Source: Nanobdellota archaeon (GTDB taxonomy: Archaea > Nanobdellota > Nanobdellia > Woesearchaeales > SM23-78). Taken from it: 64,000 bases of DNA. This document shows, one piece after another, positions 26,194 to 54,709 of this stretch (position 1 is its first letter; each line of letters starts with the position of its first letter). Made by a program: the position numbers and the translations under genes. The notes beneath the pieces are model-generated. The model had not been told where the DNA came from. It ran no database searches and was given only the letters and a program-made list of their open reading frames with translations. The stretch spans positions 34,832-98,831 of the forward strand of contig JAHJQO010000014.1 in NCBI GenBank assembly GCA_018819305.1, in the 5' to 3' direction.

Positions 26194-29100
26194 TTATTTC
26201 TTACCAAACCCAAACAAAGTCTGTTGGCTGCTGCCAGCAAGTATGTCATCAAAGGATTGGCCATAGAATCCAAGAACACTGTCTGCCAATGGCTTGATTT
26301 GCTTTTCAATATAATGCTCATAATCTATTTTATGCTTTTGCTTCTGGATTGGCTCAGGACCTGCTGTTGTCATCACATATTCAATCAAAGTTCCATCTAA
26401 TTCTTTGCCAAGCAGCCGCGCTGCTTTGACATGCGGAGGAGTTGTTTTTGTGTATTCTGCAACACCTTTTCTAATTGATTTTCTATAGATTAAGGATTTA
26501 TCATGCTTGCCATTTTTGATTTCTTCAACAATATTTTTTACATATTCTGCTACTTCTTGTTTTTTGAAAATCCTGTCCAAGAGTTCCTGCTGAAATTGTT
26601 TTGCAATATCTGTCCAGTCTTTGCGCACAAATTCAAGCCCTACAAAATCCATCTTTGTCTTGCCTTTTTCATCTTCAATAAAGCCTGCATATCTTTTTTT
26701 GCTGCCTTTTTCAGAATGCCTGGCCATTGGCATTAAGAATCTCTTGTAAACTTTTTCAAATTCCAGCTCAAGATAGTTTTTTCTTTTGTAATCCTTTTGC
26801 GTATGCTCTTCAAAAAACTTGTTCATTATTCTTGCTATTTTGTTGCCTATTTTTTGCGCATCAGCATAGTTATTGACATTGAGATTTACAAAAATTGAAT
26901 CAGTGTTATGAACTAGAACTCCATTAGCAAAAAATCTATGGTTGTCTTTTACTTCCAAATCATAAACATAATCTTTGTATAATATTTCTTCAACCCTTTT
27001 AACACTCGAGATATCAAAATCATACTTCCTTATGGTTCTCTTTTGCTTTGAATTGACAGGTATTTTTTTTAACCTTTTGTTTTTTCTATTTAAAACAAAA
27101 CCAACGAATTTATTATATGAAAGGATATCCCTTACTACGATATGCAAAGAAATTGTATCGCTCTTCACAGAACAGTACTTATTTTTATTTGTTTCAGAGA
27201 AAAACGAACAAGGAATACTTATGAGCTGCAATAATTTCTGAATTTGATTAATAAATTCCTTGTTTGTGTTTGTGAATCTAACTATGGGTGAACCATTCCT
27301 AATCATGACTGTGCCGTCAGCAGAAAAAAGCCCCCTTAAAAAGCTTGCAATATTTTCATTTGATTCATTGAAAATAAATTCAGGAATGCATTTATGTTTA
27401 TCACGTAAAAGATTTTCATTAAAAAAATAAACTATTTTAGTACCATTAATACAAATATCTCCTTTAGGCTTTTTCCAATAATTTCTTATCCAACCTTGAC
27501 TCTTTAGTGGAACAATAACTTTTCTAATAATCTCATTCTGATCCAAGCCTGCTGCTAAATGGAGATAGTAATTTTTCTTTTTCATAGAATCAAAAGAACC
27601 GTCACCAATAAACAACCCCATAAATTCATAAAACTCTTTAGAAAAACCTTTAGTAGTTATCTTTTGATGGGGAACCGATTTTATCGAAACAACACTTTTA
27701 ACATTTTTTCCTAACTCGTTAGGTTTTACTTCAACTAAACGATCCATATCAGAAAGTTTTGCTTTTTTTGATTTGTTAATATATCCAATCAAAGAATGAT
27801 CTTCAGTTACATCAACAAACCAAGAATTTGTAAGATATACCCTGTGCATTTTTTTATTAACTTTGTGTCGCATAACATAAGAAATTGGCTTAAAAACTGA
27901 TTTACCAGAAGAATCAATTGTTAAAACACTGTAAGGAATATTCAAAGAATACGACTTTCCATCAGATGATCTTTTATCAACTTTAAAAAAAATATCTGAA
28001 ATGTTTTTATACAAAACATTACCGTTCGCATCTTGAACAATAACTTCGCTATCAGCAGCAACACTGTCTCCATATATCACTTCATAGCCCATATCTTTGA
28101 CTTTCTGCGCAGTCATCTTTATGAAATGCTGGCCAAAATAAGTGATTGCATTTGAAATATCTCTATTGTGAAACCTGCAGTTGTTGTTGCCTAGCACACC
28201 ATAGAATGAATTCATTAGAATTTTTATTGCGAATCTTGCAAATTCATTTTTTTCTTTTCTTGCTTTTTCTCTTTGCGACCAAAGCCTTTGAATAATTATT
28301 GGCAACAGTCCATCCTGATTCTTAAAACAAGCTCCATTTGGTGCTTTAACAAGATTTTTTCCTTTACAGTCAGCTACAAAGCTCAATGGGTCAATATTAA
28401 ATGTCCTTATTATGCTCGGATACAGACTTTTGAAGTCGCACACAATCACATAATCATATATTCCTGGTTTTGGCTCCATTACAAACCCTCCTAAGCCAGG
28501 TGCTTCATCTGGATTATATGTGGATGTTCCTGCAACATAGTCTTTTTTTCTAAGTTCTTTAAGATAAAGCGAGTCAAGACTTGCAATACTTGCCCTGACA
28601 CGGTCCAATGGCATTCCTGTCAGCAATGAACGCTGGATTGAAAGGCTAAGTGCTGTGCTTTTGTAAAGAATATCATAAGCTAGTTTTGAATCCAGCAGAT
28701 TATAGTCCACCAAAAGCTGCTGGTCTTTTTTATATGCATTTTCAATTTGCTCAAATCTGTTTTTGCCTGTGAAAATCTTTGATGTTCCTAAGAAATGCTG
28801 TGCTGCTGTTTCCAGTTTATAATTTGGCAGTCCAATAAAATTGTTTTTTAGCACCTGAATGCCGTCAAGTATCATTCTGCCTGGAAAGTCAGCTCTTGAA
28901 TCCTGGAAAAATGAATTAAATATTCTTAATGAGCATTTCATGTTTCCTCTGCCCAGCAAGAAAGGTATGTTGTATTTACTAAATTTGTTTTCTAAAAATT
29001 TTAAGTCAAAGTCTATAAGATTCCATCCTGTGATAATGTCGGGATTGACTTTTAGCAATAATTCCTGGAATTTGAAAATCAATTCTTTTTCATCTGCCAC

Positions 29101-29673
29101 ACTGATTGCTTTTTTGAGCTTTTTGTCAGATATAATTATTACTTTTTTAAAATCATCAGTGTAAAGAGAAACAGCATAAATTTGCTTGTGAGTGATGTCG
29201 GTTTCTATGTCTATGGATAAAACTTTTAGGTTTTTAGGTGTATAATCTGCTGGCTTGAGCTCAGGATCTAAATAAACCCTGTCAATTTCTTCTCCTTTTG
29301 CATAATTACCCTCAATTTCAAGGCTTCCCTGAAACCTGTGGTCATACATAAACCTGTATTCAAAGCGAATGTCTGCTTCATAACAGGAAATATTTTGTTC
29401 CAAGAGTTTGTTTCTCAATGGTTTTATTTGTGGAGGAACATGCATTATTATTTTTACAACAGGCTCTTCATCAAAAGTCTTGTATTTGGTTTCCTTGTAA
29501 TCAAACTTTTCAATTTCCAGGGCTGTGTTTAAATCTGATTGTTTTATAAAAAAATAAGGCCTGAACTCATTGATTGTTAAGAAAGATTCTCCATTCTGCA
29601 ATCTGCCAAATAGATATACATAAGCTTTACCATCCTTTATCTTATAAGTAGGATGAACAATAAACCCCTTCAT
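26194..29673 (-). CDS. polB: Family B DNA polymerase (archaeal PolB) interrupted by one intein.
   Basis: Exo I LSIDIETD, motif A DFKSLYPSII, motif B KILMNSFYGVLG, motif C split as VIYGD | intein | TDSIFV. Extein total ~772 aa. Confidence 0.9.
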   Translation of the reverse strand: MKGFIVHPTYKIKDGKAYVYLFGRLQNGESFLTINEFRPYFFIKQSDLNTALEIEKFDYKETKYKTFDEEPVVKIIMHVPPQIKPLRNKLLEQNISCYEADIRFEYRFMYDHRFQGSLEIEGNYAKGEEIDRVYLDPELKPADYTPKNLKVLSIDIETDITHKQIYAVSLYTDDFKKVIIISDKKLKKAISVADEKELIFKFQELLLKVNPDIITGWNLIDFDLKFLENKFSKYNIPFLLGRGNMKCSLRIFNSFFQDSRADFPGRMILDGIQVLKNNFIGLPNYKLETAAQHFLGTSKIFTGKNRFEQIENAYKKDQQLLVDYNLLDSKLAYDILYKSTALSLSIQRSLLTGMPLDRVRASIASLDSLYLKELRKKDYVAGTSTYNPDEAPGLGGFVMEPKPGIYDYVIVCDFKSLYPSIIRTFNIDPLSFVADCKGKNLVKAPNGACFKNQDGLLPIIIQRLWSQREKARKEKNEFARFAIKILMNSFYGVLGNNNCRFHNRDISNAITYFGQHFIKMTAQKVKDMGYEVIYGDSVAADSEVIVQDANGNVLYKNISDIFFKVDKRSSDGKSYSLNIPYSVLTIDSSGKSVFKPISYVMRHKVNKKMHRVYLTNSWFVDVTEDHSLIGYINKSKKAKLSDMDRLVEVKPNELGKNVKSVVSIKSVPHQKITTKGFSKEFYEFMGLFIGDGSFDSMKKKNYYLHLAAGLDQNEIIRKVIVPLKSQGWIRNYWKKPKGDICINGTKIVYFFNENLLRDKHKCIPEFIFNESNENIASFLRGLFSADGTVMIRNGSPIVRFTNTNKEFINQIQKLLQLISIPCSFFSETNKNKYCSVKSDTISLHIVVRDILSYNKFVGFVLNRKNKRLKKIPVNSKQKRTIRKYDFDISSVKRVEEILYKDYVYDLEVKDNHRFFANGVLVHNTDSIFVNLNVNNYADAQKIGNKIARIMNKFFEEHTQKDYKRKNYLELEFEKVYKRFLMPMARHSEKGSKKRYAGFIEDEKGKTKMDFVGLEFVRKDWTDIAKQFQQELLDRIFKKQEVAEYVKNIVEEIKNGKHDKSLIYRKSIRKGVAEYTKTTPPHVKAARLLGKELDGTLIEYVMTTAGPEPIQKQKHKIDYEHYIEKQIKPLADSVLGFYGQSFDDILAGSSQQTLFGFGKK
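26905..28065 (-). mobile_element. Intein (387 aa) with a LAGLIDADG homing endonuclease domain, inserted in polymerase motif C (YGD|TDS, the pol-c site).
   Basis: The intein starts with Ser (S537) right after YGD and ends ...VLVHN, followed by +1 Thr (TDS). The two dodecapeptides are EFMGLFIGDGSF and ASFLRGLFSADGTV. Confidence 0.8.
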
Positions 29674-29779: not shown

Positions 29780-30409
29780 TTATTTCTTGTTTTCAAACTG
29801 CTGTTTCATAGCCTCTCTAAACATTCTTCCCATTGCACCACTCATCATTGCTCCTTTAGTCAGATTATGCATCTCAATTACAAGCTTAGGATTTTTCTTT
29901 TTTTTGCCTATTTCAGATACATAATCACAAATATTGCTAATTGTTCTTTTAGCCTCAACCTCTTTTTCATTAAAGGTATATAACTCAAGGTCTTTAAGAT
30001 AACCAAAGAACTCTTTTTTTTCATTATCATTTAGATTTGCTTTGTGTCTTATTATTTTACCAACTGTCTGGCCTGCTTTTATACCTACATAAGTAGCTAT
30101 TCCTGTTTCAGCAGCAAGAGTTAAGTAAGATAAGGAATTCAGATCTTGATTTGTGTTGACAACACTCACCAAAAAAGCGTTTCCCATTGAAACTGCAGCT
30201 TCTAATTTAGAACGAGCAGAATTTAATTTATCATATTTTTTAATATCATTCTTATCACATTCTTCTGTCTTGTCGCAGTCTTCACATCCTTTATTTGCAT
30301 ATTCTGCTAAATCATGACTAAAACCAATTTTTCTGTCAGTATAAAATCCAAAAGCAAAACCACTGGCAAAACCATAAGCAGCGCCTCCAATTATTCTTTC
30401 AAGAGTCAT
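29780..30409 (-). CDS. Hypothetical protein, last gene of the E1/JAMM/AAA operon.
   Basis: Gly-rich hydrophobic N-terminus (GGAAYGFASGFAFGF) and Cys cluster CEDCDKTEEC. The start overlaps the upstream gene stop. Confidence 0.35.
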   Translation of the reverse strand: MTLERIIGGAAYGFASGFAFGFYTDRKIGFSHDLAEYANKGCEDCDKTEECDKNDIKKYDKLNSARSKLEAAVSMGNAFLVSVVNTNQDLNSLSYLTLAAETGIATYVGIKAGQTVGKIIRHKANLNDNEKKEFFGYLKDLELYTFNEKEVEAKRTISNICDYVSEIGKKKKNPKLVIEMHNLTKGAMMSGAMGRMFREAMKQQFENKK

Positions 30410-32031
30410 TTTTTAACCTCCATAAAAACCTTGTCAAGCTTTTCTGAAATCATGTTCAAAATAGGCGTTCTTGCTAAGTATTCTCCTACTTTTCCTTTGC
30501 TTTCAAAAGATTCTTTTATCTGCTCAAATGAATTGTTTCCTACTTTTTTCTTGGGATTTATTAATTCTACATGATTCCTCTGAATATCAAAAATATAAGG
30601 AGTTCCATGACGATCTCCTGTAAAATGATGAAACTCAATATCTATCTTTCCACCTCCATCTCTTTTAACATAACCCCAGCTACCATTTTTAGTATGAGTA
30701 TAATTATCTCCGCTCTTTACAATCTTAACTTTAACACCTGCTCTAAATACATCTTCTTGCTTTGCCTCTTCTAACAAGAACTGTGTGCAAAGATTCTCAT
30801 AACCATTATGATTCAACTTTTTAGGGAAAGTTTGATTATCCTTATTTATTGCAATTTCTAAATCACTAATTTTAAGACATTTAGTATCACCTTTAAAATT
30901 AATTTCCCATGTGGCTCCTGAATTGCATGTGCAAGAGTCAGTTTTTCCAATAATTCCTTTATACTCATCATAGTACTCACTGCCTTTTTTTACTCTTACT
31001 TTCAGGTTTTCCTTATGATCCTTTATTTTTGCTGGTTTAAAATAATAACCTGCTTCAAATTTAAACTCTGTTTGGTTAAGCTTCAATTCTGCTTGATTAG
31101 AATACTCTGATATCACTGCCTTAAATAGAGCTGCAAAATCTGGTTCTGCCCTATCATGCGCTCTCTTATGTTTATTTAATTCGTTATAAACATCATTCTT
31201 TGCAAATATACTGCGAACTATTTTTGGGTCATCAACAAGTTCAGATAAACATGCTGCCTGTTCATAAACATTCATATCATGACCAAACAGCTCAATCATG
31301 GCATTTTCAACTAATCCTTTGTTAACCTTTTCTTCATTTTTTATTGATTCCAATAATTTAAAATAGTTAGAGCATTCCCCTGCAAAGAACAGTTCAACTC
31401 CTTTGTACAGCATTTCATTGCTTGTTAATAATTTATCCTGTGATAACTCTAATAATCTATTTTTCACATCATCATTTCGTGCAGATGAAACGAGTTGAGA
31501 ATAGACTATTGTATTTGACAAATCATCAGGAGTATCCAACTTATCTACTTGTGAAGCAAGGAATGGTATTTTTTCTAAGAGATTCTGCGCAGCCATAGAT
31601 GAAATTACATTAGTACCTATGTACTGTAATACATGGGGCTCTATTTTTGCCTTTTTCACCTTATCTTTTTTTATATTTTTTGTATAATCCTTTAGGAGGT
31701 GAAGAGGTGATGTTTCTGGAGCTAATCTTGAAATTAAAGAATCATGGTTAGGTGTATATTTTAATCTTATGAAGTCTGAAAAAGCTTTTTCAGGATCCTT
31801 GGCAATCATTTGCTTTGCTTTTTTCTTATCAATGTCATTTGCAAAATAATATGCTAAACTTGTATCTGGGAGATTTGTTCCTGTTAACTCATCAAAACCG
31901 AATCTGGGTTGCTGTGCCTCCAGAATCTTTGATATTTTTCTAACTGGATTCATATCTGCTGCTAAAACAACTATTTCTTCAAGGGCTTCTTCTTCATTTA
32001 ACTCTTCTAACAAATCAATTTCATCATTCAT
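30406..32031 (-). CDS. Hypothetical 541-aa protein with an acidic N-terminus and C-terminal small beta-rich repeats (possible SH3/KOW-like) plus a CxC..C..C motif.
   Basis: Operon position. The repeated V(R/K)VK..KSG.. blocks and SCTCNSG...KCLK...LCTQ were seen directly in the sequence. Confidence 0.4.
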   Translation of the reverse strand: MNDEIDLLEELNEEEALEEIVVLAADMNPVRKISKILEAQQPRFGFDELTGTNLPDTSLAYYFANDIDKKKAKQMIAKDPEKAFSDFIRLKYTPNHDSLISRLAPETSPLHLLKDYTKNIKKDKVKKAKIEPHVLQYIGTNVISSMAAQNLLEKIPFLASQVDKLDTPDDLSNTIVYSQLVSSARNDDVKNRLLELSQDKLLTSNEMLYKGVELFFAGECSNYFKLLESIKNEEKVNKGLVENAMIELFGHDMNVYEQAACLSELVDDPKIVRSIFAKNDVYNELNKHKRAHDRAEPDFAALFKAVISEYSNQAELKLNQTEFKFEAGYYFKPAKIKDHKENLKVRVKKGSEYYDEYKGIIGKTDSCTCNSGATWEINFKGDTKCLKISDLEIAINKDNQTFPKKLNHNGYENLCTQFLLEEAKQEDVFRAGVKVKIVKSGDNYTHTKNGSWGYVKRDGGGKIDIEFHHFTGDRHGTPYIFDIQRNHVELINPKKKVGNNSFEQIKESFESKGKVGEYLARTPILNMISEKLDKVFMEVKK

Positions 32032-32043
32032 TTTACATCCTCA

Positions 32044-33558
32044 TTACATCCTCTTTCCATCCAAATAAACTTCTTTTATTATTTGGCCATCTACTTCTAT
32101 TTCCTTGATTTGAACTCTTTTTTTGTCAGGAAGCTCTAATGACTTTGCTTTTTTTGTATGACAATCACAAATAGATTCTAATTCACTCACTCCTCCTCTG
32201 GATTCAAAGTCAGAGATGTACTTGATTTCGCCATTTACAGGGCTGCCATAAATATCTGGTCTTAGCGCACACATGGCTTCCCCTATCATCAAAGCAGTGG
32301 CTATCTGGTTGATCATAATAACAGAAGGGTTGGGTGCTTGTATACAGCTAGTTCTCCTGATAATCTCAGCTCTGATAGCAAGGTCTGAAAGATTAATCTG
32401 GCAGTCAAAACATGAAGTTTCTCCTTGCTTATAAGCTAGAACTGTTGCTGCCCTATAATCTGTGCCTCCACTAATAATAGGGATGTTGTGTTTTTTTGCA
32501 TAATTATGAAGAATAGCCTTTGTGTAAAAACTATCCACTCCGTCAAAGATTAAATCATATTTTGTATCGAATTTGGATTTTTCTGTGAACTTATCAACAA
32601 TTGCATTTATCTGTGTTTTTCCTTTTGAAATCTTTTGCATAGTCTCTGCTATTCTTTCTGCCTTTAACTTGCCGACTGCATCATAAAAACTTACCTGCCT
32701 GTTGAGATTATGGTCTTCAACAACATCATAATCCATAACGTCAATTCTTCTCGGGCTTAAATTAGATATTGCTGCTGGTCCTAACAAGCAGCCCAGTGCG
32801 CCAGCTCCAACCATGAGAATATTCTTATCTTTGAAAGCATTAGCTATTACTTTTATCTCCTTGTCTGAAATATGACCAAAACGTTTATTTGATTCTAAAT
32901 TATAATTATAAATTATGTTTAAAGGCTCATCTTTTCTCATTAACAACTTCTTGACTTCCTCAGCCACCATTCCGCCTAGTTCTAAAGATACAAAATCACC
33001 TTGCTTTTTTCCTTCAAACATAGGCATTAACATAGCCAGGTTGTTTTCTCCGGCACCTGAAAAAGCAACTTTTCCATTATACTTATCAGCAGAAGAGCTA
33101 ATTATTGGAACGCCTTTTTTAAGATGATAATCTAAAACATGACTCTTTGATATCTTATCATTGGTTGCATCAACTATAACATGGCTTCCTTCTAAAAAAT
33201 ACTGAGCAGCAATAGTTGATAAATCAGAGTTTATTCCAATAACATTTACCTCTGGATTAATCTTCTTTAATGCTTGCTCAAGGCTTTGAGCTCTGGATTT
33301 TCCTTTTAGAGGCAAGTCAAGAAGCATATCATTTGCTGTTCCTTTGGCAGAATCAATTATTCTTATAGTGCCTACTCCTAAAGCTGCTAATGGCATGGCA
33401 ATGTACCTGGCAAGAACATCAGAGCCAATTATAGTAACAATTCCATTCTTCAGTTTCTCCTGATTCCAGTCCTTAATTAAGAGTTGCCTGTCATACCTGT
33501 GAATATTTTTTTCAATTTTTTCTTCAATATCTTCTAAAATGTCTTTTTTATATTTCAT
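32044..33558 (-). CDS. E1-like enzyme with tandem ThiF/MoeB-type Rossmann domains (a degenerate N-terminal domain plus a catalytic C-terminal adenylation domain) and C-terminal Cys motifs.
   Basis: Domain 1 (IIGSDVLARYIAMPLAALGVGTIRIIDSAKGTAND) lacks GxGxxG and the NLNRQ motif. Domain 2 has MVGAGALGC...VMDYDVVEDHNLNRQ. CxxC (SCFDC) and ICDC follow. Confidence 0.65.
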   Translation of the reverse strand: MKYKKDILEDIEEKIEKNIHRYDRQLLIKDWNQEKLKNGIVTIIGSDVLARYIAMPLAALGVGTIRIIDSAKGTANDMLLDLPLKGKSRAQSLEQALKKINPEVNVIGINSDLSTIAAQYFLEGSHVIVDATNDKISKSHVLDYHLKKGVPIISSSADKYNGKVAFSGAGENNLAMLMPMFEGKKQGDFVSLELGGMVAEEVKKLLMRKDEPLNIIYNYNLESNKRFGHISDKEIKVIANAFKDKNILMVGAGALGCLLGPAAISNLSPRRIDVMDYDVVEDHNLNRQVSFYDAVGKLKAERIAETMQKISKGKTQINAIVDKFTEKSKFDTKYDLIFDGVDSFYTKAILHNYAKKHNIPIISGGTDYRAATVLAYKQGETSCFDCQINLSDLAIRAEIIRRTSCIQAPNPSVIMINQIATALMIGEAMCALRPDIYGSPVNGEIKYISDFESRGGVSELESICDCHTKKAKSLELPDKKRVQIKEIEVDGQIIKEVYLDGKRM

Positions 33559-34916
33559 TTTTCTTTTTTCTCAACTTTTTCTTCAGGTCTATTTTCTTCT
33601 TTTTCTTTTATCTCTTTTTTCTCTCTTTCTTGTGCTTCTTTAGTCTTTAAGCCGTATTTACTCTGGAAATATGAATCCATAATCTGCATCTGCTCATCTC
33701 TTCTATATGATTCATCTAATTTAACCATCATCTTAACAAATGATTTTATTTCACCAATACTTGGATCATCTGTTCTTTTCTCATATTCATTTACTTTCCC
33801 CTCAAGAGTTTTTAGAAATGGCCTAGACAAGTAGAATGCGTTTTGATAAGTACCACCATAATGATTGTCATACTGAGCATAATATCCTTGAGCATCCCAT
33901 TTCTGTGCATTTGCACCAACAGAAACATACTTTCCTTTTTTGCCTTTAGCTCCTTTCCAGTTGACAAAAACCCATTTCTTAGGAAGATCAATATTAGCTT
34001 TGATTTCCTCTTCTAAAGACTGTCTTGTGACTTCTATGTCATTCTTAACAAAAACCTTTGAAATCTCTACTTTGTCAATTAATTCAGAGGAATTTCCTTT
34101 AGTAATAGCTTTTTCAGTGGAAAGTCCAATAGCGGTATAAGGCTTAATATTAGGTATGTTGCTCATAATAGCATAATAAGCAAAACCAAAAATATGAGAT
34201 TGATAATAATTTATTTGAGTTGTATCAAGTAATGAATTTAACAGATGAACAGCTTTGTCCTTTGCATTTTCCTTTTGAAAATCAACACCATTTCTTTTTA
34301 AAATTCTTTCCAAGCGCTTATCATGGTTCAGAACATACTCAATTATTGCATCATCTACAGATCTACCAGAAAACCTTATTCTTCCGTTTTCTCTGTTCTT
34401 TGTAATCTGAGTTTCAATAAGTTTTAATGGAATATTAATGTGTTGTTCTGTGTTAAGGCTGACAGAATTCAGCACAGTTTCAAAGTTTTCCATATCCACA
34501 CTTGAAGGTCCTAAGTGGCGTGCATCTCCATGGCCATGAGGCCAACCAATAATATATAAATTGCTTCCATTTGCATTGTTTTTTTCCTCTAACTGATTAT
34601 TTGCTTTAGCCACATCATCTCCGCTAATCTTAACAGTTCCAAGAGTGATATCCTGGCCTTTCTGTATCAAAAGATCACGTATAACATAATTAGGGTCTCC
34701 TTGTTGTGTTAGAAAATATGCTGACCATTCATAGTCTCTGCCAGTAAGCTCTTTTATAAGAGGACCTATCATCTCTAATTTCTTATGCGCCCCTAATGTG
34801 ATTGGCATTTTTTTAGGAATTAAATCTTTTGGAGATACTATCCTTTTTTCATGATTGTTCTCTGCTTGCACAAGCAGTTCATCAAGTTCATCAAATTGTT
34901 GTTCATTATTTTTCAT
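33555..34916 (-). CDS. Protein with a central JAMM/MPN+-like metalloprotease motif (candidate deubiquitinase-like isopeptidase). K/E-rich C-terminal tail.
   Basis: YIIGWPHGHGDARHLGPSSVD matches GWYHSHP.......SSVD (HxHx7-8Sx2D), with Glu residues upstream (LEEK). Confidence 0.45.
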   Translation of the reverse strand: MKNNEQQFDELDELLVQAENNHEKRIVSPKDLIPKKMPITLGAHKKLEMIGPLIKELTGRDYEWSAYFLTQQGDPNYVIRDLLIQKGQDITLGTVKISGDDVAKANNQLEEKNNANGSNLYIIGWPHGHGDARHLGPSSVDMENFETVLNSVSLNTEQHINIPLKLIETQITKNRENGRIRFSGRSVDDAIIEYVLNHDKRLERILKRNGVDFQKENAKDKAVHLLNSLLDTTQINYYQSHIFGFAYYAIMSNIPNIKPYTAIGLSTEKAITKGNSSELIDKVEISKVFVKNDIEVTRQSLEEEIKANIDLPKKWVFVNWKGAKGKKGKYVSVGANAQKWDAQGYYAQYDNHYGGTYQNAFYLSRPFLKTLEGKVNEYEKRTDDPSIGEIKSFVKMMVKLDESYRRDEQMQIMDSYFQSKYGLKTKEAQEREKKEIKEKEENRPEEKVEKKEK

Positions 34917-34917
34917 T

Positions 34918-36267
34918 TTAACCTCTATTCCAATCCCATCTGTTTGTTATTAACAGACCTTTTTTCTTAGCCTTCTCAATAGTAGTCTTTCTTGGAGATA
35001 GCTTTTTATCTAATGAATCACCAAAATATTCACCACCATCTCTTTCATCACCACCATGCCCTCTTATGCTATGTGGTGTTAAACCGTGCATAATTAAGTT
35101 TTTAGCATCATCAAGCGCCTTTGCAACCCATTCAACATTACTGCCATTTCTTGAGGGAACATTCCCCCCGCAAAGACCTTGAAAAGCTTGATTCTTATTC
35201 GATGTAAATGGATGCCATTCAGGTTCAAAGAGTTCAGGTTTATCCAAATAAATATCTCCGTCATATTGGATTCTCAATCCCACTCTTAATCTTGGAAATT
35301 CATAACAAACACCTTTCTTAGTTGGTCTTGGATCTAGCATTGCAAAAGGAGGTATTATCTGGTAAACATAGACGCTTCCATCTTTTCTTAAGAAACCAAC
35401 ATCACCATCATTAAACTCCTTAAGCTTTATAATTCCATCAAAGTCCTTTAATGCCTTTAGTCTGGTCCTCTGCACATCCTTAATGTAATCAGAAAATTCG
35501 TCAATGGCTTCTATCTTTGCAGTCCATTCCAAGAAATCAGAGTAATTCTTTTCTATATTCTCAACTTTTGCAAGAGGTAATAATTCTGATTTTTCAGAAA
35601 CTCCATTAAGACAGATTTCTAACTGGGATTGATTACCATTTGAATTTGCTAGCTGATAAACTTTTTCACCAAGAGTCAATATATTTTTTCCCTGTATTAC
35701 ATCTAAGAAATGAGTGACTTCATCTTTTGCAGTTCCATTAAAATTCTTTTTTGCATAATCCTGCTGCTGTGCATACAGCTTTCTTTTAACCTCTTCAATA
35801 CTTCCAAGCAATTCTTTTTCATCGACTTCTTTAGAATCCTTTTTCCTTTGTTTATTTACTTCATCACCTAGTAAAGCAGATAAATCCTCTTTATGCCCGC
35901 TCATGTAGGGCATTAATTCTTTTATTATAAAAGAAAAAAGCTTTCTGTCTCCTATCTCTCTTTCTCTTTGCTCAGCAGTCTGAAATCCTTTGTCAACCTT
36001 ACTCTCAATAAAAGCTTTTTTTAGAGCAAATATCTCATCTTCATTTATATGATTGTAGAATCTGACTAAATCATCCAGATTACCAGCAGGAACCAAACCC
36101 AGTTTAACATTTGAGCCAGAAAACCCAATATAATTATCTCTGTGATTGCCCTTATTACCTTCTTTATAGTTTGGTTTATAGTTTGGGCTAACAAGATAAA
36201 CCTCTTTACCTCTAATAAGGAGAGGTCCTCTTGATGCGAGTTCTGAAAAAAAGGTTTGAAGTTTCAT
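34918..36267 (-). CDS. Hypothetical 449-aa protein. The C-terminal region has a pattern reminiscent of the UBC (E2) fold (tentative).
   Basis: YEFPRLRVGLRIQYDGDIYLDKPELFEPEWHPFTSNKNQAFQGLCGG....W resembles EFP..YP..PP.V.F....HPN.....G.IC...W. Confidence 0.35.
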   Translation of the reverse strand: MKLQTFFSELASRGPLLIRGKEVYLVSPNYKPNYKEGNKGNHRDNYIGFSGSNVKLGLVPAGNLDDLVRFYNHINEDEIFALKKAFIESKVDKGFQTAEQREREIGDRKLFSFIIKELMPYMSGHKEDLSALLGDEVNKQRKKDSKEVDEKELLGSIEEVKRKLYAQQQDYAKKNFNGTAKDEVTHFLDVIQGKNILTLGEKVYQLANSNGNQSQLEICLNGVSEKSELLPLAKVENIEKNYSDFLEWTAKIEAIDEFSDYIKDVQRTRLKALKDFDGIIKLKEFNDGDVGFLRKDGSVYVYQIIPPFAMLDPRPTKKGVCYEFPRLRVGLRIQYDGDIYLDKPELFEPEWHPFTSNKNQAFQGLCGGNVPSRNGSNVEWVAKALDDAKNLIMHGLTPHSIRGHGGDERDGGEYFGDSLDKKLSPRKTTIEKAKKKGLLITNRWDWNRG

Positions 36268-36331
36268 GTCATTTCCTCTTTATCTTTTATTTTTCCTGTT
36301 GGTTGAAATCCTTTTATCTTAACATAATATT

Positions 36332-36760
36332 TTATCTTAACATATAATCAATACTTTTTTTTGCGCCTTCCTGTCTTGCAGCTACAATTATCTCTGCTTC
36401 AAGATACTCTCTTCCTGCTGTAGAAGTTGCGTCTCTAAGATAATCTGTAATTTTTTCTGTTCCTTTTATTGCCTGACCATTAACAGAAATACCATACTTA
36501 TCTTTCATCTCTATTCTAATTTTGTCTTGGTAACGAAGTTGCTCTCTTGTAAACCCGTCTTCTTCTCCTAATTCCAAAGCATGGCTAACAATCTTATCTA
36601 TCGACATGTCAGCCATGTGGTCAGGTAACAAAAACCTCAATGACTTCTCTGCCGCTGTCCCTGGCTTGACCCTTACAATTACTGGTTTATTTGCATCAGG
36701 TAAGTCTGCGCCTTTATCTCCTGTTGTTCTATTATCTTTTTTCTTTTTTTGTTCTAACAT
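36332..36760 (-). CDS. Small protein (142 aa) with a disordered basic N-terminus. Candidate modifier or adaptor of the operon. No C-terminal GG.
   Basis: Operon position between the AAA ATPase and the E2-like gene. PVIVRVKPG and ISVNGQAI segments are beta-grasp-like, but this is weak. Confidence 0.35.
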   Translation of the reverse strand: MLEQKKKKDNRTTGDKGADLPDANKPVIVRVKPGTAAEKSLRFLLPDHMADMSIDKIVSHALELGEEDGFTREQLRYQDKIRIEMKDKYGISVNGQAIKGTEKITDYLRDATSTAGREYLEAEIIVAARQEGAKKSIDYMLR

Positions 36761-36773
36761 TTTTTTTGCCTCC

Positions 36774-38258
36774 TTAAATTATATTTCTAATATCTTTGAT
36801 TTGGTCATAGCGATCATTTGCTATTGAACGAATATCTGATTCAGTTAATGATCTCTTTACGTTTTGCCCCATTTCTTTGAATTCAGCATCTATTGCTCTT
36901 AGCAAATCTGATAACCCCAAACCTTTATCGTGTGAATTACCCTTGCCATTGCCAATTTCTCTTTTTATTGCATAATCAGCTGCTCTCTGGACACTGGCCT
37001 CAATAATTGCGCCACTAACAAGATTCTTATATCTTACTGGTTCTGATGTTTGATCATAGAATTCCATTAAAGCAAGTACGCTCTCATCTGAGAATAATTT
37101 TTTTACACCTTCAGATGATAAGTAGTCTACTTCTGGAAAACCAGCTTTTTTTGCTGCTTTTCTTAATTCCCTGTTAAAGGGCATGTCTTTTAGATAAATA
37201 TCATAAATCTGCTTAGCACCTTTATCATTAGGTCTTGGAATTTCCAGTTTTCTATCAATTCTTCCAGGCCTTAAAACTGCAGGGTCTATCATATCCTCCC
37301 TGTTGGTTGCCATGACAAGAACAACATTGTAATTTGAATCAAGACCATCCATCTCTGCCAGGAACTGAGGAACTATGGAATCATAGATATCTGTGGATAT
37401 ACCACTTCCTCTTCTTTTGAAAACTGATTCTGCCTCATCAATAAATATTACGACTGGCTCATTGGTTTCAGAACTCTTGTCTCTTGCACTTGCAAATATT
37501 TGCCTGATTGTTTCTTCTGATGCTCCGACATATTTGTTTAATATTTCTGGTCCTTTGATGTTCAGAAAGTAGCCGTTTTGATTATTGCCTGTTCTGGCTG
37601 CTATTGACTTTGCAAGATTATAAGCCATTGCTTTTGCCACAAGAGTCTTTCCACATCCTGGAGGACCGTAAAGCAACACTCCCTTTGGAACCCTCTTATT
37701 ATATTTCTTATAGAGATCCTTGTGCAAAAATGGTGTCTCAATAACATCTTTTATTGTCTCTATAATATGATCTAATCCACCTACTTTGCTCCATGGAATT
37801 TCAGGTACTCCTTCTAAAGTAAATCTCTTGTTTTGTTTTCCAAGGTTATCTAGAACTACAGATTCACTATCATCAATAACTACACAGTCTCCTCTTTTTG
37901 CACCATTATTTCCATAAAGGATGGTTTGATTACCGTTTATGTTTACTTTGACTCTATTATTATCTAGAACTTCGCTAACAACAACAACATTTCCTTCTTT
38001 TCTTGGATCAGATACATCTACAATAGCATAATTATTATTTAAAGAAACACTTTTCCCTCTTTGCAGTTTGTCCTTCATTCTAGGATTATACGATACCTCA
38101 TAAGTTTGATTTCCAACTATCACTTCAACTTTTTTATCAAATACCTCTGTAATAATTCCTTTTCTAAGCGGCGGAAGTGATAATGATTTGATAATCTCTT
38201 CTTGGTCTGCAATTTCTTCTTCAAGCTTTGAAACTCTTTCTCTTAGATCTTGAGTCAT
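36774..38258 (-). CDS. AAA+ ATPase of the ARC/Mpa/PAN type: N-terminal coiled coil, tandem OB-like domains and an AAA module (proteasome-associated-ATPase-like unfoldase).
   Basis: Coiled coil RERVSKLEEEIADQEEIIKSL. Two OB-like beta segments. GVLLYGPPGCGKTLVAKAMAYNLAKS, GYFLNIKGPEILNKYVGASE, VIFIDEAESVF and ATNREDMIDPAVLRPGRIDRKLEIPRP are strikingly Mpa/ARC-like. Confidence 0.8.
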   Translation of the reverse strand: MTQDLRERVSKLEEEIADQEEIIKSLSLPPLRKGIITEVFDKKVEVIVGNQTYEVSYNPRMKDKLQRGKSVSLNNNYAIVDVSDPRKEGNVVVVSEVLDNNRVKVNINGNQTILYGNNGAKRGDCVVIDDSESVVLDNLGKQNKRFTLEGVPEIPWSKVGGLDHIIETIKDVIETPFLHKDLYKKYNKRVPKGVLLYGPPGCGKTLVAKAMAYNLAKSIAARTGNNQNGYFLNIKGPEILNKYVGASEETIRQIFASARDKSSETNEPVVIFIDEAESVFKRRGSGISTDIYDSIVPQFLAEMDGLDSNYNVVLVMATNREDMIDPAVLRPGRIDRKLEIPRPNDKGAKQIYDIYLKDMPFNRELRKAAKKAGFPEVDYLSSEGVKKLFSDESVLALMEFYDQTSEPVRYKNLVSGAIIEASVQRAADYAIKREIGNGKGNSHDKGLGLSDLLRAIDAEFKEMGQNVKRSLTESDIRSIANDRYDQIKDIRNII

Positions 38259-38860
38259 TTTCTCCCCCCTATTATTTTGTTTATTTTTTTGTTTATGATT
38301 TTATTTTTCATTATTCTTCTTTAGTTTTGATTCTTAATTTCCCCTATGTCTTCTTAATATATAGGATAGTGAATTGATAATATATACTTAACGTACATAC
38401 AGGCATTAAAACATGTTTTGTACATACTATTTTGACAATTTTTCATTTTCATCCGTTCATATTTTTAATCACTGTAAAGTTATTAATTATTTAAATATTT
38501 GTTGTTGATATTTCTACAACAGATATTTTTCTAGTCCTTGGCTTTCTGGACGATGCAGTTTGTAGTGTTTTTGCAAACCTTCTGCCCACTTAGCTTCTGG
38601 TAGTAATATTTCGTATCTCATCTTCCTATGATAACTACAAAGTAGTGACGATATATAAAACATTGTAGAAGAATTTTTGGATATACGCGTAAAGATGCTA
38701 CTTTTTTTTAGTTATAATCAATAAATTAATATAATGGTTTTATAAATGAAAAAATAATTTATTACGCTTAATAACTCTGCTAGGTTTTGTTTTTACAACT
38801 AAATAAAATCACATCTTATTTAAGAATAACTTTATAAAACTCAAAAAAGAACTAAATATC

Positions 38861-38956
38861 ATGACACGTATATGTATAGTTAAGAAGGAGAAATGCAGCC
38901 CTGTGAGCTGTGGAAATTTTCTTTGCATTAGAGTGTGCCCTCTGAATCGCAAGTAA
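38861..38956 (+). pseudogene. Orphan 31-codon fragment encoding an intact ABCE1 N-terminal 4Fe-4S motif (MTRICIVKKEKCSPVSCGNFLCIRVCPLNRK*).
   Basis: It matches the archaeal ABCE1 N-terminus (M.RIA.ID.DKC.P.KCG.FLCERVCPVNR). It is followed by a stop and sits in a different frame from the downstream genes. Confidence 0.6.
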
Positions 38957-39074
38957 TCGTATTGGTTGGGGAAAAATTTAAATAATGTGACCTTTTTCTG
39001 ATATCATCAAAGCTTTTTATTCCAAAAACTTCATCATTTTTTAGCAATTTAAACATTTTTTAAAGAGTGCAAAA

Positions 39075-40448
39075 ATGTTAAATTACAAAAATGACTCCTT
39101 ATTATTGAACAAAGAAACTGCTAACGATTTAATTAGAAATAAGAATACTGACTTCATTTTTATCGATAAAGAAAAGAAAATATTGAATTTATTCTCGGCT
39201 TTTGTAAAAAAAGATGACTTCATTAAGAAAGATGAACTATGTCAACCGCTACAAAAAACCATTTATGTGAAAATAACTCAAAAACTCTTAAATAAAATTA
39301 AAAACAGATTCAAAGATAAAAAAGAAATTATAATAATTCTAGAAAAATATACTGATCGAAGAATTGTCACAAAAGAAGGGGTTAATAGATGGTTTAACAC
39401 CAGAATAATTCCTTTTATTCTTTTAAGAATATTAAGCAAAGATAATGAAGAATTTGCAGAATTCATAAAAGAAATTGATTACATTACTGATTTCTTAAAT
39501 AAAAGCAAATTTTACTGTCCGAAAACATTAGATGAATTATTAACACCAAAAATATTTTATCTCTGTGGATGCTCAGTTGGAGACGGTCATATAGATAAAA
39601 CAGGCAAAAGATGGGTTTTGGTGGATGGAAGCTCTAACAAAGAAAGATTACTTCAATCTCACAAATTCGTAGTTAACTTATCAAATTTACTTGAAAATTT
39701 AGGGATGAAATCAAGTATAAAATTAAAGAAAACAAAATGTATTTTAACAGCAAATAACAAACCTTTTTGTAGGTTTCTAAACTTCTTCTTTGGCTTGCCT
39801 TATGGAAAGAAAAAAGAAGTTGTATTAAGAAAACCAATTATACTAAATCAGAGTAAGAAAGATTTAGAAAAATACTTCTGGAGAGGATGTTTTGACACAG
39901 ACGGGAGTGTGAATAAAGATGGTACAATAGATTTATGTTCTTCAGATAATAATCTACTAACTGAATGTGAATCATATTTGGAAAACATAGGTATTAAAAC
40001 AAAAAAAAACAATATATTAATTACCATTAATATTCAAGAACTAAAGAAATTCACACAAATCGGTTTTGCTCATCAACGAAAACAAAAAGAATTCTTAAAA
40101 ATACTTAGACGAGGATTAAAACAGGAAAAAATGAATATAAGAGACAGTGAAAAGGTAGATACAAATTTATCAAGGATACATGATTTAATAAGAATCGATG
40201 GCAACTACAGAATAAGAATTCACAGAAGAAACCTTAAAAAGAGCGATATTGATGAAGAGGGAATAAGAAAAATCATTAAAGAAATGTTTGGATATGATCT
40301 AAAAGAAACAAGGAAATTACTTTATTTCAAATCCAAAAAAGTATATGAATACTTAAATAAGCGTCTTAAATCAGAGTCATATTGGAAACCTATAAATACT
40401 CAAGAAGAAGCCCAATTATTAGAAGAATGGAATGAGGTTTGGAATTAA
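39075..40448 (+). mobile_element. Free-standing LAGLIDADG homing endonuclease gene (457 aa). Its stop abuts the ABCE1 start (TAAATG).
   Basis: The two dodecapeptide motifs are IFYLCGCSVGDGHI and YFWRGCFDTDGSV, ~110 aa apart. No intein splicing blocks (no N-terminal C/S, no terminal HN). Confidence 0.7.
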
Positions 40449-42185
40449 ATGACAAGATTAGCTATTGTTGACAATAACAAACTAAAAGATATGGCTTTGA
40501 AAAAACACATACAAAGTTTATGTCCTGTTAATAGAACAGGAAGTGATTGCATGTATTTTGAGGGTTCAAAGCTTTTAATAGATGAAGCTTTATGCATTGG
40601 ATGCGGAATTTGCACTAAACCCGCTTTAGAAGCAATTCACATAGTTAATCTGCCAGAGGAATTAAAAAAAGAACCTGTGCATCGTTATGGAAAAAATGGT
40701 TTTGCTCTTTACAGCCTGCCAATCCCAATCAATGGAAAAGTTGTTGGTATTGTTGGAAAAAACGGCATTGGAAAAACCACTGCTCTTAAAATTCTTGCAG
40801 GTATTGAAAAGCCTAACTTTGGAATTCCAGGGGCAGAAGCAAGTTATGATGAGTTGATTGATTATTTTAAAGGTAGTGAGGCGCAGGGTTTTTTTGAAAA
40901 GCTCAAAAAAGGCGAAGTTGTTATTAGTTACAAGCCTCAGCAAGTTGATTTGATTCCTAAGCAATACAAAGGAACTGTCAAGGATTTGCTTGTCAAAGTT
41001 GACGAGAAAAAAGAACTTGACAAAATGGCTGAAGTGCTAGAGTTAAAAGAGATTCTTGACCATGATATTTCTAAGATTAGTGGCGGTGAACTTCAAAGAG
41101 TTGCTATTGCTGCCTGTGTTCTGAAAAAAGCAAATGTTTATTTTTTTGACGAACCAACCAGTTTTCTGGATGTCAAGCAAAGACTTAAGATAAGTCAGTT
41201 CATAAGAAACCTTGTTAATGAAGAAACTGGCGTAATTGTTGTTGAGCACGACCTGATAATTCTTGACTACATGGCTGACTTGATTCATTTGATGTATGGT
41301 AAACCAGGTGCTTTTGGAGTTGTAAGTCAGCCAAAGAGTGCAAAAGGTGGTATTAATGTTTATTTGTCTGGATTTTTAAAAGAAGAAAATGTGAGGTTCA
41401 GGGATGAAACAATAAAATTTGAAGCCAGACCTCCTATTGACATGAAACGAATGCATTTATTAACAGAGTGGGAAGGTTTCAAGCAAAAACTTGAAAGCTT
41501 TGAATTAGTAGCAGAAAAAGGAAATATCTATAAGCAGGATATTGTTGGTGTTCTTGGAGAAAACGGCATTGGAAAAACAACTTTTGTAAGAGTTCTTGCA
41601 GGTGAAATCAAAGGTCATGAATTAGAAGGACTTGGAATAAGTTATAAGCCACAGTATCTTGATTCAAGTGATGAACTTGTTATGAGTTTTATTCCGCTTG
41701 CAGTTCACAAATATGATGCTCAGCTTGTAAAGCCACTGGGCTTAAAGAATTTATTAATGAGAAAATTAAATGAGCTAAGTGGTGGAGAGTTGCAAAGAGT
41801 GTGGATTGCAAAATGTTTGAGTGAAGATTCTGATTTGATTCTTATGGACGAACCATCTGCTTATCTTGATGTAGAACAAAGGCTAAGCTTAGGAAAGATT
41901 ATACGAGATATGCTAAAGATTACAGGCAGAAGTGCACTTATAGTTGATCATGACTTATTGTTTATTGACACAATTTCTGACAGGCTCACTGTTTTTGAAG
42001 GAAAACCAGCAGTGCATGGCAAAGTAACAGGCCCATTCCCAATGGAAGAAGGCATGAATCACTTCCTTGACCACATCGACGTAACCTTCAGAAGAGATGA
42101 AGAAAGCAAAAGACCTCGCATCAACAAGCTAGGCAGCCAAAAAGACAAAGAACAGAAAAGAACAGGAAAATTGTATTATTCTTAA
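40449..42185 (+). CDS. abcE1: ABCE1 (RNase L inhibitor/Rli1, ribosome recycling ATPase) with twin ABC domains. Its N-terminal FeS domain is degenerate.
   Basis: Two Walker A motifs (GIVGKNGIGKTT, GVLGENGIGKTT), two signatures (ISGGELQRVAIA, LSGGELQRVWIA), and a C-terminal ...KLGSQKDKEQKRTGKLYY tail. The N-terminus retains CIGCGIC but lacks the CxxxxCxxxCxxxCP Cys residues. Confidence 0.9.
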   Translation: MTRLAIVDNNKLKDMALKKHIQSLCPVNRTGSDCMYFEGSKLLIDEALCIGCGICTKPALEAIHIVNLPEELKKEPVHRYGKNGFALYSLPIPINGKVVGIVGKNGIGKTTALKILAGIEKPNFGIPGAEASYDELIDYFKGSEAQGFFEKLKKGEVVISYKPQQVDLIPKQYKGTVKDLLVKVDEKKELDKMAEVLELKEILDHDISKISGGELQRVAIAACVLKKANVYFFDEPTSFLDVKQRLKISQFIRNLVNEETGVIVVEHDLIILDYMADLIHLMYGKPGAFGVVSQPKSAKGGINVYLSGFLKEENVRFRDETIKFEARPPIDMKRMHLLTEWEGFKQKLESFELVAEKGNIYKQDIVGVLGENGIGKTTFVRVLAGEIKGHELEGLGISYKPQYLDSSDELVMSFIPLAVHKYDAQLVKPLGLKNLLMRKLNELSGGELQRVWIAKCLSEDSDLILMDEPSAYLDVEQRLSLGKIIRDMLKITGRSALIVDHDLLFIDTISDRLTVFEGKPAVHGKVTGPFPMEEGMNHFLDHIDVTFRRDEESKRPRINKLGSQKDKEQKRTGKLYYS

Positions 42186-54606: not shown

Positions 54607-54709
54607 AGCGGGAGGGGAGACTCGAACTCCCGATCAGTGGGTTGCAGCCACTTGCCTTAGCCGCTTGGCCTTAGGAAAAAACCTCAAAAATGATAGTCTT
54701 TACTCCCGC
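54607..54709 (-). tRNA. tRNA-Cys (anticodon GCA) with a ~31-nt non-canonical intervening sequence between nt 9 and the D-stem (approx. 54670..54700). The mature length is ~72 nt; CCA is not encoded.
   Basis: Acceptor GCGGGAG/CTCCCGC (7 bp), U8A9, D-arm GCCA-AGCGGCTA-AGGC, anticodon arm AGTGG-CTGCAAC-CCACT (anticodon GCA), variable GATC, T-arm GGGAG-TTCGAGT-CTCCC, discriminator T. The 5' acceptor strand is separated from the D-arm by 31 nt. Confidence 0.6.

Follow-up and report, generated by a model that had tools for sequence, protein, structure and literature searches.

A seven-gene DPANN operon that may join a Bil-like ubiquitin-like conjugation system to an ARC/Mpa-type unfoldase

We analyzed a 64,000-nt stretch of DNA (the window), a chromosomal fragment of a DPANN archaeon with a GC content of 33%, in which an operon occupies positions 29780 to 38258 of the minus strand. 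In order of transcription, its seven genes encode an AAA+ ATPase of the ARC/Mpa type, a predicted ubiquitin-like protein (Ubl), an E2-like protein, a JAMM protease, an E1, and two proteins that match no family. A preliminary description of this DNA had put the operon forward as a candidate novel Ubl conjugation and targeting system. Our analysis supports that proposal, and each of its functional calls held up; two points needed correcting, in that the modifier is the product of gene 2 and that the core of the system and its E1 are Bil-like. The seven open reading frames (ORFs) have the coordinates first given for them, and the co-directional, abutting or overlapping layout is borne out by spacings, from gene 1 to gene 7, of 13, 64, 1, -4, 12, and -4 nt. 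The motifs first quoted are likewise all present in the translations.

36774..38258, minus strand: gene 1, ARC/Mpa-type AAA+ unfoldase, 494 aa, in which a coiled coil and OB domain(s) accompany a single AAA module
36332..36760, minus strand: gene 2, predicted Ubl precursor, 142 aa, with a disordered N-terminal tail (residues 1-21), a beta-grasp domain (27-128), QEGA, and a 9-residue tail
34918..36267, minus strand: gene 3, E2-like protein, 449 aa, with an N-terminal region of ~280 aa and a C-terminal UBC-like domain
33555..34916, minus strand: gene 4, JAMM/MPN+ metalloprotease, 453 aa, whose long C-terminal extension is poorly conserved
32044..33558, minus strand: gene 5, single-chain pseudo-dimeric E1, 504 aa, with two ThiF stretches
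30406..32031, minus strand: gene 6, accessory protein, 541 aa, with an acidic N terminus, a helical core of ~220 aa, and small beta domains at the C terminus
29780..30409, minus strand: gene 7, lineage-specific protein, 209 aa, whose start shares 4 nt with the end of gene 6

The E1 protein of gene 5 is identical in the NCBI metagenome-assembled genome (MAG) GCA_018820305.1 ("Nanoarchaeota archaeon") and several independent assemblies. The same contig was recovered in several independent assemblies, and the core genes recur beside the E1 in most of 88 loci from other genomes. Chance does not account for this arrangement. Scans of genes 2, 3, 4, 6, and 7 as single sequences against Pfam, NCBIfam, and PADLOC were empty. 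Therefore, we built family alignments from the neighborhoods of E1 homologues. The core counts below are for 88 E1-anchored loci and were obtained with iterated hidden Markov models (HMMs) built from the window proteins; L numbers denote individual loci.

The E1 encoded by gene 5 has the following features:

32914-33558, minus strand: inactive adenylation domain (~residues 1-215)
32047-32913, minus strand: active adenylation domain (~residues 216-504)
32344..32346, minus strand: codon of Cys405 (C383xxC386-x18-C405), which lies on a short crossover loop and is our candidate for the catalytic cysteine of the E1

Pfam ThiF matched the protein in two stretches (E = 7.6e-44). Across 28 homologues, the N-terminal domain keeps R21, Y22, R24, and Q25 (RYDRQ) invariant, and its P-loop is degenerate (IIGSDVLA), with no GxGxxG. 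In the C-terminal domain, G251-A-G-A-x-G256, D276, D278, N284, R287, Q288, K299, and D339 are all invariant; gene 5 itself has GAGALG, DYDVVEDHNLNRQ, CxxC (C383/C386), and CxC (C464/C466). The loss of the P-loop in one domain and the invariant residues of the other agree with the call of a degenerate first and an active second ThiF domain. A profile of the N-terminal domain aligned to MoeB/ThiF, and the inactive domains of Uba1, UBA6, NAE1, and SAE1 aligned with it as well. By its sequence, gene 5 follows the inactive/active pseudo-dimer logic of canonical E1s. We found Cys405 to be invariant in 28 of 28 diverse E1s, including bacterial ones without CxxC, and we take its position to be equivalent to ThiF C184 and MoeB C187. 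The candidate catalytic cysteine would sit, as in ThiF, MoeB, and Uba5, on a short crossover loop, and C464xC466, near the C terminus, probably forms the other half of a zinc site. In PADLOC, the ThiF domain matched the Cap2 "E1-E2" models.

Gene 3 lies two genes upstream of the E1 gene, and two of its features matter here:

34921-35421, minus strand: UBC-like domain (~residues 283-449)
35170..35172, minus strand: codon of Cys366 in WHPF-x11-LCGG, our candidate for the catalytic cysteine of the E2

The protein contains EFP...WHPF...GLCGG, and in the aligned E2 family the cysteine is present in 78 of 78 rows, His352 in 70, and Pro353 in 74. The best structural match of gene 3 was BubB, the Bub E2. 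When the full model was compared with the PDB by Foldseek, there was no significant match, and E2s predominated in the list. Profile-profile comparison with three eukaryotic E2s, for which approximate query sequences were used, gave the expected register at 1.8% probability, and a search of PDB sequences with the E2-family HMM returned only noise (kinases and S100 proteins). The BubB match and the HPF...Cys motif agree with the resemblance to a UBC fold noted at the outset, and we describe the C terminus of gene 3 as a probable UBC-like fold with a candidate catalytic cysteine.

Gene 4, between the E2-like gene and the E1 gene, contains GWPHGHGD...PSSVD, which had been read as a JAMM-type motif:

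34494..34538, minus strand: zinc/catalytic motif H127-G-H129-x8-S138-x2-D141 (upstream catalytic Glu, E63)

We aligned 28 relatives of gene 4, drawn from E1 neighborhoods, and saw no variation at G124, H127, H129, S138, or D141; at least 90% of the sequences have E63. Gene 4 has an x8 spacing, and most relatives show the canonical HxHx7Sx2D. Gene 4 alone had no Pfam match; Prok-JAB was matched by 23 of the 28 relatives. The family profile matched solved MPN+ deubiquitinases in the PDB: BRCC36 (the best, at 1.7e-11), Pyrococcus furiosus JAMM1, the Caldiarchaeum Rpn11-like protein, CSN5, and Rpn11. The motif reading was therefore sustained, and these profile matches speak against the doubt, raised with it, that the protein might not adopt an MPN fold. 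Going by its conserved residues, gene 4 is an intact JAMM/MPN+ protease.

The modifier had not been settled in the preliminary description, which named gene 2 as one candidate and saw no obvious GG-terminated beta-grasp gene. The first of these points is borne out: gene 2 is the missing modifier, a beta-grasp ubiquitin-like protein. Its C terminus is laid out as follows:

36362..36373, minus strand: Q130-E-G-A133, where the Ubl is predicted to be cleaved and activated
36335-36361, minus strand: tail KKSIDYMLR

A search for a beta-grasp fold in this 142-aa protein found one, with SAMP1 as its closest structural match, and residues 1-21 are predicted to be disordered, as had been said of its N terminus. 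The C terminus of the Ubl family consists of a conserved Q-[EQ]-G-G followed by a variable tail; GG with a tail of 1-14 residues is present in 46 of 55 nonredundant members. The clade of the window Ubl (four members) has an invariant QEGA and a tail of 7-16 residues. Once trimmed, the Ubl of the window would end in either Gly132 or Ala133.

The first gene of the operon had been described as an Mpa/ARC-like AAA+ protein with a coiled coil and OB domains. It carries the motifs GPPGCGKT, YFLNIKGPEILNKYVG, and ATNREDMIDPAVLRPGRIDRK:

37644..37667, minus strand: Walker A GPPGCGKT (direct translation; invariant in the alignment of orthologues)

The best NCBIfam model for gene 1 was TIGR03689 (pup_AAA), which gave 418.7 bits over residues 5-492 and model positions 20-510 of 512. 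Mycobacterium tuberculosis Mpa (PDB 5kwa) aligned with it in one stretch (residues 29-492), and Pfam AAA and Prot_ATP_ID_OB_N both scored above cutoff. This end-to-end correspondence confirms the description. The score is below the TIGR03689 equivalog cutoff (418.7 versus 504.75 bits), and the orthologues scored 378-401 bits. Among 11 orthologues, Walker A, Walker B, the K-[YW]-V-G aromatic pore loop, and the Arg fingers are invariant. Gene 1 is ~35-44% identical to bacterial ARCs. With a family HMM, AAA+ proteins of the DPANN clade scored 644-742 bits versus 262-418 bits for the nearest non-DPANN relatives among the matches listed, which were higher-GC ARCs. A search of a representative library with gene 1 was dominated by multi-AAA proteins and added little. 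Two annotated bacterial relatives, L093 and L144, lie in ARC-Dop-PrcB-PrcA-PafA operons, unlike the DPANN AAA+. Since gene 1 matches pup_AAA end to end but below cutoff, lacks a docking tail, and has relatives in Pup operons, it has, at the level of sequence, diverged within the Mpa/ARC lineage, and its genomic partners are wholly different. The two classical operons (L093:9713-16232 and L144:9860-13607) are on mid-GC (42-47%) metagenomic contigs, and Pup-proteasome loci thus occur in lower-GC lineages that are probably not actinobacterial.

We then counted the core genes across related loci. The E1 family comprised ~95 clusters in a set of 5.8 billion proteins and had 193 matches in GTDB species representatives. 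Of 80 kept loci, 64 were archaeal (Woese-, Pace-, Nano-, and Aenigmatarchaeota and other DPANN) and 16 were bacterial (Desulfobacterales and relatives, Chloroflexota, Acetothermia, and Fraserbacteria). The E2 was found in 76/88 loci, the JAMM protease in 75/88, and the Ubl in 59/88, and the typical order was Ubl-E2-JAMM-E1. The recurrence of this core in most of the 88 loci answered the question, asked at the outset, of whether the gene neighborhood is conserved. Gene 7 is confined to near-identical contigs, apart from one weak match in L035, and gene 6 is represented in 25 of the 88 loci. Thus, genes 2-5 form the conserved unit, which gene 1 accompanies in a subset. The locus very probably encodes a complete system for conjugation and deconjugation of a Ubl. 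The genes of this cassette are currently annotated as "hypothetical" or "ThiF family."

An ARC-like AAA+ gene lies directly upstream of the Ubl gene in 12 loci belonging to two separate E1 clades, and in 6 of these 12 the AAA+ stop and the Ubl start share 4 nt. Other loci of the window's own clade end before the AAA+ position. A ClpX-like AAA+ (266-327 bits to ClpX models, below cutoff) takes its place in the sister clade, at two other archaeal loci, and in the deltaproteobacterial form of the cassette. An AAA-anchored metagenome scan returned, among the matches listed, almost only bacterial ARCs, and the sole DPANN-type AAA+ had a Ubl gene immediately downstream. Two unrelated unfoldase families, ARC-like and ClpX-like, have been recruited to the same cassette, and we have no stronger argument for a functional link between tagging and unfolding. 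We regard functional coupling of the Ubl system to the AAA+ as likely.

The cassettes vary in number and in their accessory genes. Single DPANN MAGs carry two to four divergent Ubl-E2-JAMM-E1 cassettes (L014, L015, L028, and L034 in DATDYQ01; L022/L023; L038/L043), and the accessory sets differ between the cassettes of one MAG, with a ClpX-like AAA+, an ARC-like AAA+, or none. In Desulfobacterales and relatives (L007, L075-L078, L080-L083, L085) the order is E1-Ubl-E2-(150-aa protein)-ClpX-like AAA+-JAMM (266 aa); the Ubl of this version ends in KPQEGG plus 1-7 residues, and amidoligase and GATase genes lie upstream in L007. Ser/Thr kinase genes follow the E1 by one or two genes in one clade (L006, L037, L043, L044, L045, L048, L049), and kinase genes also accompany L005 and L047, a recurrence that suggests phosphorylation-linked control of tagging. 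In three ARC-linked loci, L034, L035, and L041, the E2 HMM found no E2; ORFs of 227-290 aa between JAMM and E1 or after E1 may be very divergent E2s or replacements. In one locus only, an ARC-linked cassette (L022:13976-18391) adjoins an Hsp70 (DnaK) gene and probable co-chaperone genes, a proteostasis context.

Genes 6 and 7 had been listed as unknown, and neither matched a family. For gene 6 there was no Pfam, NCBIfam, or PADLOC match, and Pfam still gave none over all 16 members; its N-terminal helical core (~220 aa) comes directly after the E1 in the 25 loci counted above. Residues ~420-500 of gene 6 form a beta domain of ~75 aa (GDxVxV...GSWGYV...IEF; no known family) that is shared with insertions in two E2s:

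L047:5036-6886: E2 with the insertion at residues 327-403
L024:5306-7204: E2 with the insertion at residues 339-415

This domain behaves as a mobile module inside the system, and its insertion in two E2s is our reason for linking gene 6 functionally to the E2. Gene 7 had no Pfam, NCBIfam, or PADLOC match and no clear transmembrane segment (maximum KD19, 1.12). In hydropathy profiles, none of the seven operon proteins has a clear membrane segment.

The operon is preceded by a long intergenic region:

38259..39074, between gene 1 and a divergent LAGLIDADG ORF: presumed promoter region, 816 nt, AT-rich (27.5% GC)

A purine-rich GGGGGGAGA stands 3 nt 5' of the gene 1 ATG. Rfam gave no match within or close to the operon, and a sigma-70 promoter and terminator scan, which uses a bacterial model not applicable to an archaeon, stayed at the level of shuffled sequence. 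Housekeeping genes flank the operon in the window (PolB, ABCE1, glycogen-metabolism genes, glutamine synthetase, and ABC transporters). A scan of ~37 window ORFs showed no proteasome, Pup, Pup-ligase, Dop/PafA/PrcAB, other protease, or known defense gene, which matches the first observation that Pup, PafA, and Dop are missing from the locus. We made several further observations on the neighboring genes:

26194-29673, minus strand: family B DNA polymerase, 106 nt downstream of the operon on the same strand, containing an intein with a LAGLIDADG endonuclease domain (Pfam DNA_pol_B_exo1, DNA_pol_B, Intein_splicing, LAGLIDADG_3, DNA_pol_B)
39075-40448, plus strand: free-standing LAGLIDADG_3 ORF, 457 aa, which stops one base before the ABCE1 start (40449-42185) and looks like a homing-endonuclease relic or a domesticated copy adjoining an essential gene
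42233-43105, plus strand: Fic/DOC-domain protein (AMPylation-type enzyme), just past ABCE1
54615-54670, minus strand: weak second tRNA match (Rfam, 34.4 bits, model positions 9-63 only; uncalled by ARAGORN), which may be a split, intron-containing, or degraded tRNA
22512-23753, minus strand: GT4 glycosyltransferase in the glycogen-metabolism cluster, whose Pfam "GT4-conflict" match (E = 7e-21) is probably mere family overlap

We lean toward a model in which a Bil-like Ubl system, operonically coupled to an ARC/Mpa-type hexameric unfoldase, tags proteins that are then unfolded. Gene 2 would be made as a pre-Ubl, with a disordered N-terminal tail, a beta-grasp domain, and QEG-A plus a 9-residue tail. 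The JAMM protease of gene 4 would trim this tail and later strip the Ubl from its targets. The C-terminal domain of the E1 would adenylate the Ubl C terminus, with a trans arginine supplied by the N-terminal domain (RYDRQ), and would form a thioester on Cys405. From there, the Ubl would pass to Cys366 in the UBC-like domain of gene 3 and on to lysines of the targets, which may be chosen by the 280-aa N-terminal region of the E2, by gene 6, or by both. The AAA+ of gene 1 would recognize Ubl-tagged proteins via its coiled-coil/OB ring, possibly engaging the disordered N-terminal tail of the Ubl, and would unfold or extract them for degradation or disassembly. That the AAA+ reads tagged substrates is, in our estimation, an evenly poised question.

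Several points weigh against this model. Folds, catalytic motifs, gene order, and co-conservation are what we observed; we infer every chemical step, the link from tag to unfoldase, and the biological role. A GQYL or penultimate-Tyr C-terminal motif is the means of docking onto the 20S proteasome. Gene 1 ends in ...KDIRNII, with no HbYX or GQYL, and across its 11 orthologues the C termini vary and the motif is absent. No protease gene was found among the window ORFs scanned, so an outcome in degradation is unsupported, and neither an E3 nor a target was identified at the locus. The window Ubl has QEGA, not GG. Many cassettes are without any AAA+, and the unfoldase is thus not obligatory. Finally, co-conservation was measured mostly in E1-anchored loci, and the reciprocal AAA-anchored test amounts to one informative locus.

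The biological role is a separate matter from the mechanism, and we asked whether the system could be an antiviral or anti-mobile-element defense like Bil. In this case the Ubl would be attached to invader proteins, such as virion parts, and the AAA+ would serve as an effector that takes tagged assemblies apart, or as a regulator. This role, which is compatible with tag-and-unfold, is possible, but we regard it as unlikely. The parts and their order are those of the anti-phage BilABCD. The two to four divergent paralogous cassettes per small genome, with swapped accessories (ARC-like, ClpX-like, kinase), are typical of conflict systems. The N-terminal region of the E2 and the C-terminal region of the JAMM protein vary strongly in length, up to 1403 aa, and genomic context differs between close relatives (the window versus L009). 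However, no PADLOC family was matched beyond generic AAA and E1 similarity, and the flanks of the window are housekeeping. At ten other loci, the flanks include DnaK, GTPase, kinase, and regulator genes, with no restriction, CRISPR, or abortive-infection genes. An E1 profile scan found no relative in 2.9 million viral contigs, and the recurrent Ser/Thr kinase linkage fits signaling at least equally well. Multicopy, modular diversification leans toward a role in conflict or host interaction. Housekeeping flanks, kinase linkage, and absence from the viral contigs lean slightly away from a classical defense island.

An alternative to the tag-and-unfold mechanism is that the AAA+ acts on its own system, by unfolding or recycling Ubl~enzyme complexes, freeing Ubl from oligomers, or switching the E1 or E2, in the manner of TRIP13/HORMA in CBASS. 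We consider this improbable. The AAA+ gene is translationally coupled specifically to the Ubl gene, and Ubls of related bacterial operons are reported to oligomerize (PMC11601603). PADLOC found weak similarity of gene 1 to TRIP13 and IetA, but these matches (57-77 bits) reflect the shared AAA module only. Gene 1 aligns end to end with the substrate-translocating Mpa/ARC and has kept the aromatic pore loop, and its ClpX-like replacements are also processive unfoldases.

We also weighed a sulfur-carrier function (MoeB/MoaD, ThiF/ThiS, or SAMP/Urm1-like) for the E1 and its beta-grasp partner, with protein tagging not their main task. The best sequence matches of both E1 domains are MoeB, ThiF, and Uba4, and the protein closest in structure to the Ubl, SAMP1, has a dual function. 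However, all MoeB, ThiF, and UbaA models scored gene 5 far below their curated cutoffs (e.g., 124.7 versus 275 and 117 versus 266). The operon has no rhodanese domain and no MoaE, ThiG, ThiI, or NcsA partner; the Ubl is predicted to need proteolytic maturation; a Cys-bearing E2-like protein and a JAMM protease are conserved between Ubl and E1; and one E1 domain lacks a nucleotide site, which is unseen in homodimeric sulfur-carrier activators. On the failed cutoffs, the E2 and JAMM companions, and the inactive domain, we rejected a sulfur-carrier pathway as highly improbable, and with it the suggestion that gene 5 is a MoeB/ThiF cofactor activator. Hardly credible, and likewise rejected, is that the AAA+ is the general proteasomal ATPase of the organism, an ordinary PAN that neighbors the cassette by coincidence: gene 1 does belong to the proteasomal ATPase superfamily and has an OB N-domain, but it is adjacent to and co-conserved with the cassette in 12 loci of two E1 clades, where its stop codon often overlaps the start of the next gene, it has no HbYX and no nearby proteasome genes, unlike the ARC loci L093 and L144, and PAN models gave it ~216 bits, about half of its ARC-model score.

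If the tag-and-unfold model is right, it would be a third separate solution to tagging and then unfolding, beside the eukaryotic Ub-26S/Cdc48 and the actinobacterial Pup-Mpa pathways, and the Mpa/ARC family would serve two chemically unrelated tagging systems. It would also give a function to a conspicuous multicopy gene set of reduced DPANN genomes, with up to four cassettes per MAG. If the coupling is functional, the origin of the link between ubiquitin tagging and ATP-dependent unfolding could be tested with seven small soluble proteins. We suggest, tentatively and with some doubt, that a ubiquitin-to-unfoldase pathway arose independently in DPANN archaea and some bacteria, with a Bil-like mark, a dedicated ARC- or ClpX-type reader, and a JAMM protease in an Rpn11-like recycling role. 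The Bil, Bub, and CBASS conjugation systems were shown only recently, and we know of none that feeds an unfoldase. To our knowledge, the only prokaryotic tag-to-unfoldase pathway is Pup-Mpa, with entirely different chemistry.

The closest described system is BilABCD, a bacterial ISG15-like anti-phage ubiquitination system of four genes (Ubl, E2, JAB/JAMM, and E1), with structures from E. aridi (PMC10557695). Conjugation and preprocessing of a C-terminal extension of the Ubl by the JAB protease have been demonstrated there, with no E3, and BilD is a single-chain inactive/active E1 whose zinc is held by two crossover-loop cysteines and two near the C terminus (PMC10557695). Genes 2-5 have the same parts, the same order, and the same inactive/active E1 logic. 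The zinc-type Cys pairs are here C383/C386 and C464/C466, an E3 is absent here as well, and the Ubl of the window also has a C-terminal extension, whose removal by gene 4 is predicted. The two systems also differ. The catalytic Cys of BilD is on a helical CYS domain of ~80 aa, whereas Cys405 comes 18 residues after CxxC with no insert. Family searches, as opposed to a direct Bil alignment, gave no NCBIfam or PADLOC family match for genes 2-4, and BilD was not in the best 60 of the 80 and 70 PDB matches of the E1 domain profiles. Here the E2 has an extra N-terminal region of ~280 aa, the hosts are mainly DPANN, and an operonic AAA+, not reported for Bil, is present. BilABCD shares the parts, their order, and the E1 logic, and the pseudo-dimeric E1 therefore has a precedent in prokaryotes. 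The preliminary description had called an unfoldase joined to a tandem-ThiF E1 undescribed; this was right for the unfoldase coupling, of which we found no account in the open-access literature, but not for the E1 architecture, which BilABCD already has (PMC10557695).

Likeness to the Pup-proteasome system lies in gene 1, a full-length Mpa/ARC relative with the coiled-coil/OB/AAA architecture, and perhaps in the disordered segment on the tag, which could start translocation as it does on Pup. However, the tag here is a folded beta-grasp protein handled by E1/E2 chemistry, whereas Pup is disordered and its ligase resembles glutamine synthetase. Neither Pup_ligase nor proteasome genes adjoin gene 1, which has no GQYL C terminus and scores below the TIGR03689 cutoff.

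The operons of Caldiarchaeum subterraneum and Asgard archaea are archaeal too and combine a Ubl with a processed C terminus (processing is predicted here), an E1, an E2, and a JAMM deubiquitinase. The Caldiarchaeum Rpn11-like protein is among those matched by the family profile of gene 4. These archaeal operons have a RING E3, which is lacking here, whereas the operon in the window has an E1 fused into an inactive/active pseudo-dimer, an unfoldase, and an E2 and a Ubl without detectable sequence similarity to eukaryote-like Ub/UBC. The SAMP/UbaA/HvJAMM1 system of Haloferax, which has links to the proteasome and Cdc48a, differs in having no E2 and dispersed genes, with no operon containing an AAA+. 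Its E1, UbaA, has a single domain, forms a homodimer, and has a second function in sulfur transfer.

CBASS Cap2/Cap3 and Bub likewise combine E1, E2, and protease modules, and BubB is the best structural match of gene 3. However, Cap2 is a homodimer in which E1 and E2 are fused and whose conjugation target is the cyclase itself, and Bub works through oxyester intermediates, with a homodimeric peptidase-E1 that lacks a catalytic Cys and a serine protease. Here, both the E1 and the E2 have an invariant cysteine, and a JAMM enzyme serves as the protease. In the open-access literature, where absence is no proof of novelty, our searches turned up no DPANN Ubl system and no AAA+-coupled E1-E2-JAB operon. 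Thus, against the background of these known systems, the unfoldase coupling (ARC-like in 12 loci and ClpX-like in others) and the DPANN setting appear to be the new part.

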